Shown here one piece after another: positions 5,864 through 45,973 of a stretch of DNA of 46,033 nucleotides (positions within the stretch are counted from its first letter, which is position 1; each line of letters starts with the position of its first letter). The stretch is taken from the NCBI GenBank assembly GCA_964549075.1, contig CAZJUB010000008.1, forward strand, positions 23,077 to 69,109. Direction: 5' to 3'. Origin of the DNA: an uncultured archaeon (GTDB taxonomy: Archaea > Asgardarchaeota > Heimdallarchaeia > Heimdallarchaeales > Heimdallarchaeaceae). Both the position numbers and the translations under genes were made by a program. The notes beneath the pieces were generated by a model. It was not told where the DNA came from and ran no database searches. It saw nothing but the letters and a program-made list of their open reading frames with translations.

Positions 5864-6751
5864 ATGACAAAAGATGAAGTAAAATCTCTAGTGAATTCTG
5901 TCAATATGATTAAAAACATGGTTGAAAGTATAGTTGCAGCTGTACAAGAAAGATTCAAAGATTATGATGATGTAGTAGTCTCACTTAAAGAAAGAATTCA
6001 AAACCTGGAGGAAAGAGCACAAAGTACAGGACCAAGTGCACAAACGATCACCTCAGGTTCATTTGAACAAATAACTAAACTTGAAAAGCGATTAGATAGT
6101 TTAAATGAAAGAATTCTTCTAATAGAAGCTGCAAGAAGTGTGCACAAAGAAGCAGCAGTTGAACCTACAGAAGTTCAGGCATTTAAAGAAGCAACTGTTG
6201 AGGAAACCAAATCCAAAACAATAGAAATGCCTTCAGCTCCTGCTGCACCACCACCAACACCAGAGATTGTATCTCTTGAGCCAGAACCAAGACCAGTTCC
6301 TGAAGAGCCATCCCCTCCAACAGTTGAAGCTCCTTCTATTCCCACTCCAACACCTCCTCCCGCAACAAGAATTTATACGCCTACACCAGCACCAGCACCT
6401 GAACCAACACCGGTTCCTGCAACAACACCTGAACCAACTACAGAACCCACTCCAATAATCCCTTCACAAATTCCAACACCTTCAGCCATACCTAAACCAG
6501 CTACACAAGTAACAGAAACTGGAGAACGAGATGTAAGTCCAATATCTAAGGAAGTAACTGGAGCAATACCAGCACCACCTAAACAAGAAGATGCTGTACC
6601 TACAACCGACACATTTCAAACGCCTGTAGCAAAACCAGCCCCCGAGCCAATAGCTCCAGAAGAGAAAAAATCTGCAGAATTATTTGGTGAGGCTGTAAGT
6701 GGTGACAAAGCAGAATTACTAAAAGCTTTAAAGAAATTGGAAGATTTGTAG
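5864..6751 (+). CDS. Hypothetical protein: N-terminal coiled coil, long Pro/Thr/Glu-rich disordered region, C-terminal amphipathic helix
   Basis: Heptad-like LKERIQNLEER / LEKRLDSLNERI, Pro-rich middle containing PSAP, ends DKAELLKALKKLEDL. No signal peptide or TM segment. Confidence 0.75.
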   Translation: MTKDEVKSLVNSVNMIKNMVESIVAAVQERFKDYDDVVVSLKERIQNLEERAQSTGPSAQTITSGSFEQITKLEKRLDSLNERILLIEAARSVHKEAAVEPTEVQAFKEATVEETKSKTIEMPSAPAAPPPTPEIVSLEPEPRPVPEEPSPPTVEAPSIPTPTPPPATRIYTPTPAPAPEPTPVPATTPEPTTEPTPIIPSQIPTPSAIPKPATQVTETGERDVSPISKEVTGAIPAPPKQEDAVPTTDTFQTPVAKPAPEPIAPEEKKSAELFGEAVSGDKAELLKALKKLEDL

Positions 6752-7835: not shown

Positions 7836-8164
7836 GTCTGCTAGAATCAACATCTAAATTCTTTAGAGATATTGGTGCAGGAATTGTAAGATATTTACAT
7901 CTTACACCAAGATTGTGGAAGATAATAGGATTGGAATCGTTCATCTTTGCAACATTTGTTGGTATTTGTGCAATTATTAGTGAAGGTATTATGCTACTTC
8001 CATCTCCCACAGAACCAGGCTGGTTAATATTTGTATATGCAGCATTAAAGGTTGGACTAAGTCTTCTTCTTGTAGGAATATGGTTGATAGTCTGGTATTT
8101 CCTTACTAAGAGACTAATGAAAAACGATGGAAGTAATAAAATTAAAAATGAAGAGAATGATTAA
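7832..8164 (+). CDS. Small two-TM membrane protein
   Basis: ATGA overlap with the aglH stop. Two hydrophobic helices. Confidence 0.7.
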   Translation: MSLLESTSKFFRDIGAGIVRYLHLTPRLWKIIGLESFIFATFVGICAIISEGIMLLPSPTEPGWLIFVYAALKVGLSLLLVGIWLIVWYFLTKRLMKNDGSNKIKNEEND

Positions 8165-8817
8165 GCTCTAGTTTCTAGAAGATACAACCTTTTCTTCAAA
8201 TTGAAATACTTTTTAGCAAATTCATGACTTGGAATCTCATAATCTTCAAATTGCTGTTCAATTGCAAAAAGCTCATTTTCAACGGTTAATATCTCATCTT
8301 CAAGATGAATTTTCTTTTCTTGCTGAAGAGCTCTTCTTGAAATGTCAGCGAATCTTTTAATCTTGATATCTGCTAAATCTTTCTTTTTCTGTTCAAGAAT
8401 CAAAGATAATTGTTCTTCTTGTGCTATTATAGGGTCTAAGTGAGTTTGCGGATCAATTCTTTGTGGTTGTTCAGCTGTAGTACGTACAGGAACTTTTGAG
8501 AAAAGTCTCATCATTTCCACAATTACTTGAAATAGATGATAACTTGGTCTCCATCGAGCTAACATTCTCATTTCTAACACTTTATCCTGTGTTAAATTTG
8601 GATGAGTTATGGGGCTTAAAACACGCACAATTGGTGAAGTCGATGGAAAATCATTTGGAAGTACTATCAAAACTTCAATAAACATTTCCCCGTCAGCTGT
8701 TATTGCAGGTACAACACCCCTCCATCTTGTTAAATCTCCTTCTATTGGTTCAAAAGCGTATGCTCTTTCCATAACAAGGCTATATTCTTTTGCTAAGATA
8801 TCATCTGGAACAGGCAT
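8161..8817 (-). CDS. UEV (inactive E2-like) + coiled coil + steadiness-box/Mod(r)-like protein, ESCRT-I Vps23/Vps37-like
   Basis: E2 motifs W-G, PNDFP..SP, HPN and W-P. Catalytic Cys position holds Glu and the protein has no Cys. C-terminus QFEDYEIPSHEFAKKYFNLKKRLY resembles the Vps23/Vps37 helical hairpin. Confidence 0.8.
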   Translation of the reverse strand: MPVPDDILAKEYSLVMERAYAFEPIEGDLTRWRGVVPAITADGEMFIEVLIVLPNDFPSTSPIVRVLSPITHPNLTQDKVLEMRMLARWRPSYHLFQVIVEMMRLFSKVPVRTTAEQPQRIDPQTHLDPIIAQEEQLSLILEQKKKDLADIKIKRFADISRRALQQEKKIHLEDEILTVENELFAIEQQFEDYEIPSHEFAKKYFNLKKRLYLLETRA

Positions 8818-42019: not shown

Positions 42020-42194
42020 AAAGTTCATTAAGAAATTTTAATTTTTTTATTTTTTTTTTTTGAAAAATAGTTATTAGCACGTGTAATAGTCTGAAATTTA
42101 GTTTGAAAAAATAAAAATGCAGCCAAGCGAGAAATATCAAATAATTTAAATAGTCTCCGAGAGAATAAATAAATTGTATAAAGGGGAACTTATA

Positions 42195-42764
42195 ATGGGC
42201 GCAGGACAACGTAAAATCTTTAAAATCACCCTTCTTGGTGATGGCGCAGTTGGAAAGACAAGCCTCCGTAAGACCTATCTAGGTGAGGGTTTCAAAGATG
42301 GATATTCTATGACTATAGGCGCTGATTTTGCGGTGAAACGCCTACGAATTGATGACCAAGATTTTGTTGCACAAATTTGGGATCTTGCAGGTCAGCAAAG
42401 ATTTTCCGCTGTCAGGGAAGTTTATTATCGAGGTACATCGGGATGTCTGTTGGTCTTTGATATATCTAGACGTTCAAGTTTCGAAAATATTCCATCATGG
42501 ATTGCAGAACTACTAAAGAATAATAGTAATAGGGTTGTACCAATAGTTTTGATTGGTAATAAATCAGATCTTCGAGCATCAGCTAAAGATCCTATAATGA
42601 GAGAGCAATCTGAGGAATATGCTAGATCATTATCTCAATGGTCAGGATTTACTGTTCCATATATAGAAACTTCAGCTAAAACCGGAGAAAATGTTGATGA
42701 AGCTTTCAAAACACTTCTGAAAAACATCGTTCTTTTCTACGAGAAGTTATATGCACAACAGTAA
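42195..42764 (+). CDS. Rab-like small GTPase
   Basis: GDGAVGKTS, TIGADF, WDLAGQ, YYRG, NKSD, ETSAK. Probable start is ATG 42195. Confidence 0.93.
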   Translation: MGAGQRKIFKITLLGDGAVGKTSLRKTYLGEGFKDGYSMTIGADFAVKRLRIDDQDFVAQIWDLAGQQRFSAVREVYYRGTSGCLLVFDISRRSSFENIPSWIAELLKNNSNRVVPIVLIGNKSDLRASAKDPIMREQSEEYARSLSQWSGFTVPYIETSAKTGENVDEAFKTLLKNIVLFYEKLYAQQ

Positions 42765-42787: not shown

Positions 42788-43573
42788 TCACTCTTCTATT
42801 TTTATGTTCATAGTTTCTTCATTAAATTCGGGATGTAGAGAGACTGTACCATCCTCTTTTACCTGTAGTATTTTCATCTGTTCCAATTCAGAGATATAAC
42901 GTCTAGTTTGTGATAATGAAACACCTAAAACAAAAGAAAGTTGTATTGGTGCTATAACTCCCATTCTTCTCAATAATGATATAATGTTGAATCTTGGATC
43001 AGTGGTCACTATTCTTTGTAAAATGTTTCTTTGAGCGTTCCATTTAACTTTATCTCGTTCCAGTTCTTGTATCTTCTCTTCTACTATTTTCTTTTCTGCT
43101 TCAATAGCTACTATTTGATCTGATAATTCATAAATTAATGACTCACGTTCTTCAAGAAGCAGTTGAAGCATTTCTTTTTCTTTCTGAAAATTTGAAGAAG
43201 AGAGAGTCTTTTCACTCCCTGCAACAGATTCTGAATCTTCTATTTTTTGTATCGCTCTATTTGTTGTTTGATAGGAGGATACTGAAAACATACTTGAAAG
43301 AAAATTGAACAATCTGAAAAATTCTGCTTTCATTTCTGAGATAATAGCTTCAGAAGAATTTTCTAATAACTCATTAACATATTCAATTGCTGGAGATAGT
43401 TCTAATTGATGATATTGTTTTGATTTAGGAGTTTTTTCAACCTTAGTACGTTTTTTGGGAGTTTTGATGTTTTCTTTTAGCTCACTGACTTCTTCAGATA
43501 GCTTTGAAATTTCTGATGCTATATCAATTAATTCGGGTTCTTCTTCCTGAGTTTTTTTATCATAATCTTCCAT
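42788..43573 (-). CDS. Coiled-coil protein with C-terminal winged-HTH
   Basis: Coiled coil LLEERESLIYEL...IQELERD, then QLSFVLGVSLSQTRRYISELEQMKIL plus a beta-wing. Confidence 0.7.
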   Translation of the reverse strand: MEDYDKKTQEEEPELIDIASEISKLSEEVSELKENIKTPKKRTKVEKTPKSKQYHQLELSPAIEYVNELLENSSEAIISEMKAEFFRLFNFLSSMFSVSSYQTTNRAIQKIEDSESVAGSEKTLSSSNFQKEKEMLQLLLEERESLIYELSDQIVAIEAEKKIVEEKIQELERDKVKWNAQRNILQRIVTTDPRFNIISLLRRMGVIAPIQLSFVLGVSLSQTRRYISELEQMKILQVKEDGTVSLHPEFNEETMNIKIEE

Positions 43574-43582
43574 TTAAATCAT

Positions 43583-44419
43583 CTATATCTTCGCTGTAGA
43601 TTCTATTTTGAATCCTTCTGCTTCAGATGGAGTAATATCTAGATTTTCACTAACAAAAGCTACTCCCATCATTTTAGTTATGGCAAAGGTATCCTTAATT
43701 CTACTACCAACGGTATTTCGTGAGAAATGGAAAATACCTTGAGCTGAATTCATAATAATTCTTTCAGCTACTGGTTCTAAAACACCTTGGGGAAGTAGAA
43801 AGAAATGTACACCTCCAATCTTAGTAAAGTGTATAATTGTATTTTTCATAAAAGATATGAGCTCAGTAGAATCTTCATCTAACCTGTCTTCCTTCATCCA
43901 CAATAAATCATCAAAAACACTAAAACAATGCTTATTTTGAGATTCTTTTACATGAAGCATTCGATCTAAAATTCTATTAACATAAGTTTTTCTTTTTACT
44001 TCTATTTTTCCTAACTTTAAAGCTGATGTCATAGAAGAGCTTGATAAATCGAACATATTTTCAAAATACCAATTCTTCCCTTCGTAGGGGCTTACATCCC
44101 AATTGTATGCCCGAAAAGAATTTTGGACATGATCATAAGGACGGCTACTATGAACATAAAAAATAACGTTATTTGCTGATTGCTGAGCCCAATTAAGTAG
44201 AATTCTCTGGATAAACAAAGTTGGTATAACTGTACCAGGAGGATAACTGACGAGGATAACCGAACCTTGTGGTATTCCTCTTCTGGTTGCTAATTCCATA
44301 CCAAGTTTCTGATCTAAGGAGCGAATTCCAGTTAATATCAAATCTCCTCTGGAATCCTCAGATGCTTGTTTTTTTCCAATTCTCTCTATTCCTCCATTAG
44401 GAGCGTCCATATTCATCAA
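43583..44419 (-). CDS. RecA/KaiC-superfamily ATPase, catalytically degenerate
   Basis: ILTGIRSLDQKL...RGIPQGSVILV start. Walker A reads YPPGTVIP, Walker B reads VFDD, and KMMG replaces KMRG. Confidence 0.75.
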   Translation of the reverse strand: MMNMDAPNGGIERIGKKQASEDSRGDLILTGIRSLDQKLGMELATRRGIPQGSVILVSYPPGTVIPTLFIQRILLNWAQQSANNVIFYVHSSRPYDHVQNSFRAYNWDVSPYEGKNWYFENMFDLSSSSMTSALKLGKIEVKRKTYVNRILDRMLHVKESQNKHCFSVFDDLLWMKEDRLDEDSTELISFMKNTIIHFTKIGGVHFFLLPQGVLEPVAERIIMNSAQGIFHFSRNTVGSRIKDTFAITKMMGVAFVSENLDITPSEAEGFKIESTAKI

Positions 44420-44440: not shown

Positions 44441-44956
44441 TTAAAATTGTTCTAATTCCCTTAAAGCTAATTCTAAATCGGAGATGAACTCATCTTGTAC
44501 TTTCTTTTCTTCTTCAACAACAGGCTGAGGAGTCACCACAGCCACTGGTTTAGCTTCAGGAGTAATAGCTGGTTTTGCTTCGACATCTAATATGTTTCTG
44601 ATTTTTTCAGCTGCGATTTTCATAGTTCTTCTAACCATACCTAAAGCGACACCTGTATCAGTAATTAAACATAAAACAGTACTTCCACAACTTGCTACTA
44701 AAATAAGTCCATCAGAAAATTCTGAAATTATAATGTCTAGTTCCGCCAGACCAACATTTGTTCCTTGTTGTTCACTAGCCAAGTAAACTGCACTGGCTAT
44801 CGCACCTAGTGCCTCTGTTTCAAATTCATCAAAGGCAAATCGTGATGAATAAGCTAGTGTTAATCCTGTTTTATCAGCCAATATTACGTGATTTATATTG
44901 GCATCACTTGTTATAATCTCATGAAGTATTGTATTTATTTGGTCAGCACCATACAA
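44441..44956 (-). CDS. Roadblock/LC7 (MglB-like) protein with Pro-rich linker and C-terminal helix
   Basis: ILADKTGL.LA, ALGAIASAVY, L..IISEF..G.IL, LGMVR. Probable TTG start at 44956 after SD GGTGA (the ORF track starts at 45052). Confidence 0.88.
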   Translation of the reverse strand: MYGADQINTILHEIITSDANINHVILADKTGLTLAYSSRFAFDEFETEALGAIASAVYLASEQQGTNVGLAELDIIISEFSDGLILVASCGSTVLCLITDTGVALGMVRRTMKIAAEKIRNILDVEAKPAITPEAKPVAVVTPQPVVEEEKKVQDEFISDLELALRELEQF

Positions 44957-45061
44957 GTATATCACCAAGTGTTTTAGACATTTCTTATTGTCTATTATTA
45001 TTTTAAGATATATAAAGATTACAACAGCTGTAGTCTGATATATATTTATCAAGCAACGTTT

Positions 45062-45973
45062 TTAAACTACACAGTATTTCCTTTTATCATGATCATAAGT
45101 GCTAGTAGGGAGAAAATCTTCATAATTTACTCCTCTCCCAGTAAGCTGGATAGTAGAAAGTTCTACCTCTCCCATACATATTTCAACCACAAAATCGATC
45201 GTTAGATAATTAATTCCCGAATCTACTGTGAGAAGAAAGGATTCTCTTGTAAGTTGGTTTTCTAAGAACTTTCTTGTACTTCTTAACTGGTGGTTAATAT
45301 ATAGTTCGACATACTGTCTGTACGCTGTAAAATCATTTGCTAAGAAAGAAAGAGTAAGATTAATACTGTCATAATTTGCTGAGTTGTTAAAAACTGTTGT
45401 AACTGACCTTTTTTTCATCGAGGTTGTACTCCCCATAAACCTTAATAAGTCAGGAATAACAAGAAAAGAAGCAGTATCTTGTGTAATAGTTGTAGGTTCT
45501 ATTCGCTCTATAGTTGAATAACTGTAGATGTGGATCGAGCCTGTTTCATACCACAAAGAGGTTTGTGCTTCTACCGTAAGTATGACTTCTTGCTCTTCAT
45601 CAAAGTTGTCAGGATAGGCAAAAATTTGAGTTAAATTATGTCCTAGATGATCTTGGTAGAAACGTTCAACGCTAAGCACTACTTCTGTTTCTCCAAAAGT
45701 AAAAGTAATGGTTATGCCGTTACTATCGGTTTTATCTCCAGTAGTACTAAAAAGTAAGATTAAGCAATTAAAAGCATATAATTCTTCTTGGAGGGTGAAG
45801 GATGTTTGCTGCATACAGTAGGTAGAATTGTATTCAAAAGCAATGTTGGGGATGGAGATAGAATTACTACTTTGTTGAATATGATCTGAATAAGCTGGTA
45901 GACTGCTAAACCTTAGGACAAAAAAAATCACGAATAGTAGAACTCCTAGATTTCTCAGCTTGCATTTTCTCAT
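45062..45973 (-). CDS. Secreted beta-rich protein, possibly truncated
   Basis: Basic N-terminus and hydrophobic signal peptide, N-x-S/T sequons, no C-terminal anchor. The start codon lies inside a tandem repeat. Confidence 0.6.
   Translation of the reverse strand: MRKCKLRNLGVLLFVIFFVLRFSSLPAYSDHIQQSSNSISIPNIAFEYNSTYCMQQTSFTLQEELYAFNCLILLFSTTGDKTDSNGITITFTFGETEVVLSVERFYQDHLGHNLTQIFAYPDNFDEEQEVILTVEAQTSLWYETGSIHIYSYSTIERIEPTTITQDTASFLVIPDLLRFMGSTTSMKKRSVTTVFNNSANYDSINLTLSFLANDFTAYRQYVELYINHQLRSTRKFLENQLTRESFLLTVDSGINYLTIDFVVEICMGEVELSTIQLTGRGVNYEDFLPTSTYDHDKRKYCVV

Follow-up and report, generated by a model that had tools for sequence, protein, structure and literature searches.

Conserved terminal peptides displayed on variable disordered linkers recruit partners in several systems, among them the C-terminal peptide of FtsZ, the acidic tail of the single-stranded DNA-binding protein (SSB), which ends in Phe, and the tails of the archaeal ribosomal stalk. 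Tethered terminal peptides are also a main route by which proteins of eukaryotic trafficking and signalling come together, whereas little is charted of how Asgard archaea use them. The closest described systems are the tethered C-terminal helices of Roadblock-type regulators and of scaffolds. As laid out in the sections of Baranwal et al. (2019; PMC6785124; PDB 6IZW) on this element, MglB of Myxococcus xanthus combines a Roadblock fold with a disordered segment (residues 131-146) and a D/E-rich Ct-helix (147-157), which binds a pocket of MglA (alpha5, beta2 and the beta2-beta3 loop), gives MglB exchange-factor activity and clamps the Roadblock dimer onto this allosteric pocket of its small GTPase. 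The S7 Fig legend of the same paper describes how the Glu-rich C-terminus of RomR was aligned and swapped with the MglB Ct-helix. RomR itself, in the account of its domains given in PMC12719032, has a folded N-terminal domain and a disordered region (139-370), and its C-terminal helix by itself binds MglC, a Roadblock-fold protein, in the dimer cleft with a dissociation constant (KD) of 2.6 nM; this helix reportedly forms trimers in solution. Predicted Ct-helices are also discussed for archaeal MglB homologues in a passage of PMC13408092. Here, these systems are compared with two proteins encoded in a 46,033-nucleotide stretch of DNA from an uncultured archaeon (the window, part of contig C8 of the 3.2-Mb genome G000, 32% G+C), which the public names of near-identical proteins place in the Heimdallarchaeaceae: a Pro-rich protein, P1, and a Roadblock/LC7 protein, P2. 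Each of them begins with a folded module, continues into a disordered spacer that evolves fast and closes with a short amphipathic helix under strong purifying selection. The terminal helices are predicted short linear motifs, which the flexible tether would hold out to a binding site in a partner or in the folded module of the same protein. On balance, they appear to be two separate, lineage-restricted docking helices. A search of open-access papers and bioRxiv found none describing the P1 tail or the P2 tail.

Constraint and distribution of the two tails

The C-termini given in a first-pass annotation of the window proved correct when re-read from the DNA: P1 ends ...AELLKALKKLEDL / ...TPVAKPAPEPIAPEEKKSAELFGEAVSGDKAELLKALKKLEDL, followed by a TAG stop at 6749-6751, and P2 ends ...SDLELALRELEQF / ...TPEAKPVAVVTPQPVVEEEKKVQDEFISDLELALRELEQF / ...EEEKKVQDEFISDLELALRELEQF, with its stop at 44441-44443 (Table 1). 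Across 24 genomes of the genus, the last 23 codons of P2 have accumulated 39 extra synonymous codon variants and no amino-acid change, while all 22 columns ahead of the tail vary, with 3-8 residues each. The same boundary is seen in P1, where 2 of the last 30 columns vary among 23 sequences of the genus and every one of the 20 columns before them does; 51 extra codon variants fall at single-residue columns when the last 50 codons are counted. Both peptides have an unusually clean evolutionary signature, in which free drift gives way abruptly to changes that are synonymous only. Structure prediction with AlphaFold2 (AF2) follows the same division. In P1, residues 98-278 are disordered and a helix at 279-294 reaches a predicted local distance difference test score (pLDDT) of about 85; in P2, a linker at 131-148 (about 40) is followed by a helix at 150-173 (62-80), and the preceding domain scores 83-96 in most 10-residue blocks, with lower values at residues 1-10 (73) and 41-50 (69).

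Beyond the genus, the expectation that the tails would be conserved in orthologues was borne out, and each tail, taken singly, clearly exceeds what chance would give. Among 106 database homologues of P2, 101 end in AL[KR].L..[FL], with the consensus [DE][DE]F[LI].[DE]L[EQ].AL[KR]ELE.F. For P1, the core is retained in genera g10-g13 and in family f2, whose P1 relative ends DDKSELMKALKQLESI, and relatives with an N-terminal identity of only 36-55% still end in G[DE]K.ELLKALKKLE[ED][LI]. Of 41 related genomes, 38 have a P2 orthologue and 25 a P1 orthologue, the latter as retrieved with the full-length query; homologues of P1 were found in Heimdallarchaeaceae-type genomes only. Profiles of the tails alone were searched against 47 genomes of the order, covering families f1 (31 genomes), f2 (one) and f3 plus f4 (15), and against 36 genomes from the other three families of the class. 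The Roadblock-tail profile returns one strong match per genome in 43 of the 47, each time the Roadblock orthologue (the next best match has an E-value of 0.0995), and none in the 36 genomes from the rest of the class. The P1-tail profile likewise returns one strong match per genome, in all 31 f1 genomes and in the single f2 genome, and none in the 15 genomes of f3 and f4. At E-values up to 1, neither profile retrieves the other family in any of the 47 genomes.

Within the source genome, 3170 ends of open reading frames (ORFs) were scanned with strict to relaxed regular expressions and with a position matrix, and no third carrier was found. A generic heptad pattern occurs at 32 C-termini against 29 expected and is not enriched there. 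The first-pass annotation had regarded the motif as a reusable terminal element; since there is no third carrier and each profile finds one protein per genome and never the other family, it is not a reusable proteome-wide motif. The sole other end of the form L..AL..L..hydrophobic, ...ALGEALESLNKI, belongs to a 116-aa all-helical protein without a disordered linker (C74:8664-9014), which is probably unrelated.

Comparison with MglB and RomR

The Roadblock/LC7 fold of P2 is supported by Pfam, AF2, Foldseek and PDB profiles. In the profile search of the PDB, the domain matches 9jue_D (3.6e-6) and 6izw_B, which is MglB (4.4e-6); Foldseek matches include the MK-D1 Roadblock3 structure (9jue), MglB and LAMTOR2, and NCBIfam gives a sub-threshold match to MglB. 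By profile and fold, the domain matches the MglB proteins of M. xanthus and Thermus as closely as it does LAMTOR2 and Asgard Roadblock structures; among solved relatives, one Asgard Roadblock alone is closer than M. xanthus MglB. Beyond the domain lie some 15-20 disordered linker residues and a short D/E-rich terminal helix, an arrangement that corresponds to the extension of more than 15 residues described for MglB in the Ct-helix sections of PMC6785124, and the tail is conserved with its family, as is reported there for coupled MglB sequences. The Roadblock tail would then be the Heimdall-order counterpart of the MglB Ct-helix, and its likely client would be a small GTPase or a subunit of the complex formed with the KaiC-fold and winged-helix proteins encoded beside it. 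Several differences set P2 apart. Its tail, in which 17-23 residues are constrained, is longer and has an invariant Phe as its last residue. Its gene lies in an operon with a degenerate KaiC-fold protein and a coiled-coil winged-helix protein and not beside an MglA-type GTPase with a basic alpha5 helix; the neighbouring GTPase is of the Rab/Ras family, is encoded on the opposite strand and is a neighbour in family f1 only. A canonical-looking pair is found elsewhere in the genome (C39:5878-6771), where a tail-less 115-aa Roadblock gene is followed at once by an MglA-like GTPase with the P-loop VFVGPSLAGKT, and P2 is therefore neither the only nor the obvious MglB of this genome. There are seven Roadblock paralogues and 39 GTPase-like ORFs in total, and the six Roadblock matches other than P2 are open frames of 115-139 aa that lack the disordered linker and the D/E-rich helical tail. 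The Roadblock tail also recalls the acidic tails of SSB type with their hydrophobic or aromatic end, to which it has no sequence relationship and from which hosts and pathways differ.

P1 resembles RomR in its layout: a folded module at the N-terminus is joined by a long, disordered and Pro-rich stretch to a helix at the C-terminus. No sequence relationship between P1 and RomR is detectable. RomR begins with a receiver (REC) domain, whereas P1 begins with an AF2-predicted hairpin of two helices and has no Pfam or NCBIfam domain (the Pfam scan gave sub-threshold matches only); the RomR helix is Glu-rich and 50 residues long, whereas that of P1 has 16 residues and a net charge of 0. Because the receiver domain is missing and the helix is not Glu-rich, P1 would be like RomR in layout only, and the parallel is best taken as an analogy of architecture and not as membership in the RomR family. 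Foldseek returned no match of the P1 model in the PDB, a look-up of residues 1-100 in the ESM Atlas gave scores of 0.82 or less only, and an exhaustive HMMER search with the same residues gave 11 matches, in which every sequence inspected belongs to the same family. A Pfam match of the N-terminus to BLOC1_2 (E-value 5e-4; 20.7 bits against a cut-off of 33.4) was taken as coiled-coil noise. In genera g13 and g12 (loci L099, L102 and L100), the spacer has grown by tandem peptide repeats, for example of TPAPEPKPTPQVTAP units, while both protein ends remain fixed. The spacer also contains a second short conserved motif (Table 1), whose invariant or near-invariant columns in 22 sequences are E221, R222, D223, V224, S225, P226, I227, S228, I235, P236, P238 and P239, and which may be a further docking or modification site.

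Likeness of the two tails and candidate binding sites

Anchored at the C-terminus, the two tails have the core [DE]L..AL[KR].LE.hydrophobic in common. Numbered back from the stop and compared over distinct sequences, 22 for the Roadblock tail and 8 for the P1 tail, the two families both conserve 8 of the 13 last positions ([DE] at -12, L-11, A-8, L-7, [KR] at -6, L-4, E-3 and a hydrophobic residue at -1). The remaining contrasts are consistent: Roadblock tails have Q/E at -10, S/N/L at -9, E/D at -5 and F at -1, where P1 tails have L/M, K, mostly K, and I/L, respectively. The net charge is -4 to -5 in the Roadblock tail and 0 in the P1 tail. Among the 3170 ORF ends, the expression L..AL[KR].L[EQ].hydrophobic$ matches just P1 and P2, against 0.003 expected from the internal rate, for a pattern that was written post hoc. 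A position matrix built from Roadblock tails only places P1 at the top of the other 3169 ends, but with 0.8 bits compared to 53 for P2, and about 0.15 ends as good are expected by chance. With phmmer, the P1 tail finds P2 at an E-value of 0.77, and the reverse query does not return P1 at E-values up to 10. When hhalign is run on the two tail profiles, 12 columns align in the same terminal register, with a probability of 28% (P 6.4e-4). By Smith-Waterman comparison of the C-terminal 60 residues of the 3170 ORFs, the tails are reciprocal best matches (54, next 40-45). The score of 54, obtained over 45 x 40 residues, is equalled in 3 of 5000 shuffles, whereas that of the 13-residue core alone is equalled in 437 of 5000; it is thus the linker matches (TP.AKP, P.P and EEKK) that account for the pairwise signal. 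This linker, which the first-pass annotation had described as a shared TPxAKP...P.P...EEKK element, is indeed present in both proteins of this genome, but orthologues differ in these columns, each of which holds 3-8 residues, and EEKK occurs neither in P1 of genus g13 and family f2 nor in the Roadblock tails of families f2-f4. The linker likeness is a compositional coincidence of this one genome. The proposed common motif [ED]LxxAL[KR]xLEx[LF]-stop holds as far as the core is concerned, and the likeness between the tails, with no cross-retrieval by their profiles, is borderline at the level of sequence.

How the tails act can be read in several ways. Since their profiles do not cross-retrieve, their net charges differ and positions -10, -9, -5 and -1 differ consistently, they are treated here as separate families, and the favoured reading is that of two tail families that share an amphipathic C-terminus-anchored core and are neither copies of one motif nor MIM1. 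That they are separate, lineage-restricted tethered docking helices is, in our estimate, somewhat probable. Several observations weigh against it. The docking role is argued from architecture, conservation and analogy; the analogy to MglB is incomplete, with the canonical MglA-like GTPase on C39 adjoining a tail-less Roadblock gene and the GTPase beside P2 being Rab-like and a neighbour in f1 only; and P1 has neither a receiver domain nor a Glu-rich helix. Separateness, in turn, has to be squared with the 8 of 13 common terminal positions, including an invariant Ala at -8, with the mutual best matching of the two C-termini and with the hhalign result in the same register. The same observations would also fit variants of one motif that compete for one site, which could lie on a small GTPase or a Roadblock dimer. 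The common pattern holds in family f2, the hhalign P value is about 7-fold better than the 0.0043 obtained when Roadblock tails are aligned with native ESCRT-III ones, and the comparison of the RomR C-terminus with the MglB Ct-helix in the S7 Fig legend of PMC6785124 provides a precedent for look-alike tails on two unrelated proteins. Against a single site stand the one-directional phmmer match, the low matrix score of P1, the profiles that never cross-retrieve and the differences in charge and last residue; the ranges also differ, with the Roadblock tail found across the order and the P1 tail in f1 and f2, and most of the common positions form the hydrophobic face of any amphipathic helix, a core that shuffles readily reach. 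We therefore consider a single docking site unlikely, though worth keeping in view, and a common partner of both tails a similarly slender possibility. It is more doubtful still that the tails are competing ligands of one site in a two-input switch of Heimdall-group archaea, laid out like the MglB/RomR polarity module of Myxococcus but assembled from unrelated parts, in which the Roadblock/dead-KaiC/winged-helix complex and the Pro-rich hairpin scaffold would be the two components. An acid-base coiled coil formed between the two tails was rejected on paper: their e and g positions are not in register to make salt bridges, and the Roadblock tail is conserved in f3 and f4, two families that lack P1.

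A different site was proposed by the first-pass annotation, which likened the LxxxLxxL spacing to MIM1, the motif to which Vps4's MIT domain binds, and suggested a link between GTPase regulation and the ESCRT (endosomal sorting) machinery. The eukaryotic MIM1 consensus is (D/E)xxLxxRLxxL(K/R), with a central Arg. In Asgard archaea, according to the part of Lu et al. (2020; PMC7240154) that treats the motif, MIM1 is leucine-rich, lies in the C-terminal helix of Vps2/24/46-class subunits and binds between MIT helices 2 and 3. The source genome encodes a single Vps4 with an MIT domain (C18:31831-32979) and two Snf7/ESCRT-III genes adjoining on contig C18, a cluster that is far from both the P1 and the P2 gene; no ESCRT gene was found in the window. 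Both tails are leucine-rich amphipathic helices at the C-terminus and have the L...L..L spacing of MIM1, with L-11, L-7 and L-4 invariant, and the Roadblock tail, which is acidic where the MIT region is rich in Lys and Arg, also opens with [ST][DE]LE as native ESCRT-III tails do. Its SDLELALREL is 60% identical over 10 columns to the native SDLEAELEGL. The native tails, however, taken from 30 loci of family f1, read T[DS][DE]LE.E[IL]..L[KR][KR][KR] and then continue for 2-6 more residues, so that their motif is not at the extreme protein end, whereas both tails studied here have Ala at -8 instead of the central Glu, have Glu at -3 where basic residues follow the last Leu of the native tails, and stop directly after E.F (P2) or E.[LI] (P1). 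In addition, neither host is an ESCRT-III protein, P1 having no Snf7 match and P2 being a Roadblock/LC7 protein, and hhalign gives a probability of only 8% (P 0.0043; 10 columns) for Roadblock tails against native ESCRT-III tails and no alignment for P1 tails. A predicted complex of the Vps4 MIT domain (82 residues) with the P2 tail (residues 140-174) scored 0.13, with a mark of 0.32, in a run without controls that counts neither way. The three-leucine spacing of the proposed MIM1 likeness thus fits and its charged positions do not, the link from GTPase regulation to ESCRT is unsupported by the sequence evidence, and binding to the Vps4 MIT domain is regarded as highly improbable. Membrane targeting by the tails, as known from the C-termini of MinD or FtsA, would agree with terminal amphipathic helices on flexible tethers, but seems the least credible of the readings given their charge (-4 to -5 and 0), a hydrophobic face made of just Leu/Ala and one terminal residue, and an invariant small Ala at -8 that suggests tight packing against protein. 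An intramolecular role deserves more weight, although it too is quite doubtful: each helix could fold onto its own module, i.e. the cleft of the Roadblock dimer or the P1 hairpin, which could form a three-helix bundle with it, or pair with its own copies, thereby gating or oligomerising the protein. The confidence of the single-chain AF2 helices relative to their linkers and the RomR helix, reported as trimeric in PMC12719032, are consistent with such a latch, yet high helix confidence can arise without docking and long variable tethers are more typical of partner capture in trans. What stands of the docking claim made in the first-pass annotation is therefore a pair of conserved terminal peptides of the docking kind, with constraint starting sharply after a variable linker; its MIM1/ESCRT and reusable parts do not.

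The tails are 23- and 31-residue synthesisable baits for finding partners of uncharacterised Heimdall proteins, and they make it possible to test whether small GTPases are under allosteric control of the MglB type in the archaeal lineage that is nearest to eukaryotes. P2 belongs to an undescribed Roadblock/dead-KaiC/winged-helix operon and P1 to an undescribed Pro-rich protein family. Tethered C-terminal helices of Roadblock-type regulators and scaffolds are a known kind; the value of the finding is moderate and lies chiefly in this handle on partners.

Genomic setting of P1 and P2

Table 1. Positions in the window of P1, P2, their parts and the genes next to P2.
Feature	Position	Strand	Description	Basis
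P1, Pro-rich protein	5864..6751	+	295 aa, family not known; N-terminal helical hairpin, Pro/Thr-rich disordered spacer, conserved terminal helix	ORF, AF2
P1 residues 3-97	5870..6154	+	Predicted hairpin of two long helices (3-53, 64-97)	AF2 pLDDT >90 in most blocks; conserved columns
P1 spacer	6155..6655	+	Disordered, Pro/Thr/Ala/Glu-rich	pLDDT ~40-55; variable columns; length and sequence differ between orthologues
P1 spacer motif, residues 221-239	6524..6580	+	Second short conserved motif, ERDVSPISKEV.G.IP.PP	Alignment of 22 sequences
P1 constrained tail	6656..6748	+	31 aa, PEEKKSAELFGEAVSGDKAELLKALKKLEDL	Family-wide core = last 16 residues, G[DE]K.ELLKALKKLE[ED][LI]
P2, Roadblock/LC7 protein	44441..44965	-	174 aa from GTG 44965	Pfam PF03259 E 1.5e-7; database form P0001 = 174 aa
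P2 Roadblock domain, residues 1-130	44576..44965	-	Alpha-beta-beta-alpha-beta-beta-beta-alpha fold	AF2
P2 linker, residues 131-151	44513..44575	-	Variable, disordered	pLDDT ~40; variable columns
P2 constrained tail	44444..44512	-	23 aa, EEKKVQDEFISDLELALRELEQF	Order-wide core = last 17 residues, [DE][DE]F[LI].[DE]L[EQ].AL[KR]ELE.F
KaiC-fold protein	43583..44419	-	Directly downstream of P2; degenerate Walker A PPGTVIPT, no Lys	Pfam KaiC E 8.5e-7
Coiled-coil protein	42788..43573	-	Third operon gene; winged-helix-like C-terminal end	Weak NCBIfam match to Sul12a, residues 193-257
Rab/Ras-family small GTPase	42174..42764	+	Convergent with the operon	Pfam Ras E 4.9e-49

The longest ORF for P2 begins at a TTG at 45052 and adds 29 hydrophobic or odd residues (44966-45052) that are absent from orthologues; this start is probably over-extended. 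The KaiC-fold gene adjoins the Roadblock gene in all 23 other loci of the genus and in families f2, f3 and f4, and its product is probably a catalytically dead scaffold, as its Walker A sequence lacks the lysine. The order of the Roadblock, KaiC-fold and winged-helix genes is kept in the 23 other genus loci, in representatives of f1, f2 and f4 and in part of f3. The Rab-like GTPase, which adjoins the operon in f1 only, is 97-99% identical within the genus (24 species-level genomes), 88-92% identical to its counterparts in other genera of the family and at best about 69% identical to those in f2-f4. Identities of its neighbours are far lower (Roadblock protein 74-83%, dead KaiC 62-72%, winged-helix protein 40-45%). 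Directly upstream of P2, a gene at 45062-45973 on the reverse strand encodes a protein of 303 aa that has no family match and carries a hydrophobic segment at its N-terminus; among the loci compared, this protein is matched in the window's own locus only.

The P1 gene has an M28 peptidase gene on one side and a family-4 glycosyltransferase gene on the other, an order that is retained within the genus. Two genes downstream of P1, a reverse-strand gene at 8161-8817 encodes a 218-aa protein with a ubiquitin-conjugating-enzyme/UEV-like domain (UQ_con, E-value 1.1e-9), which likewise stays nearby within the genus.

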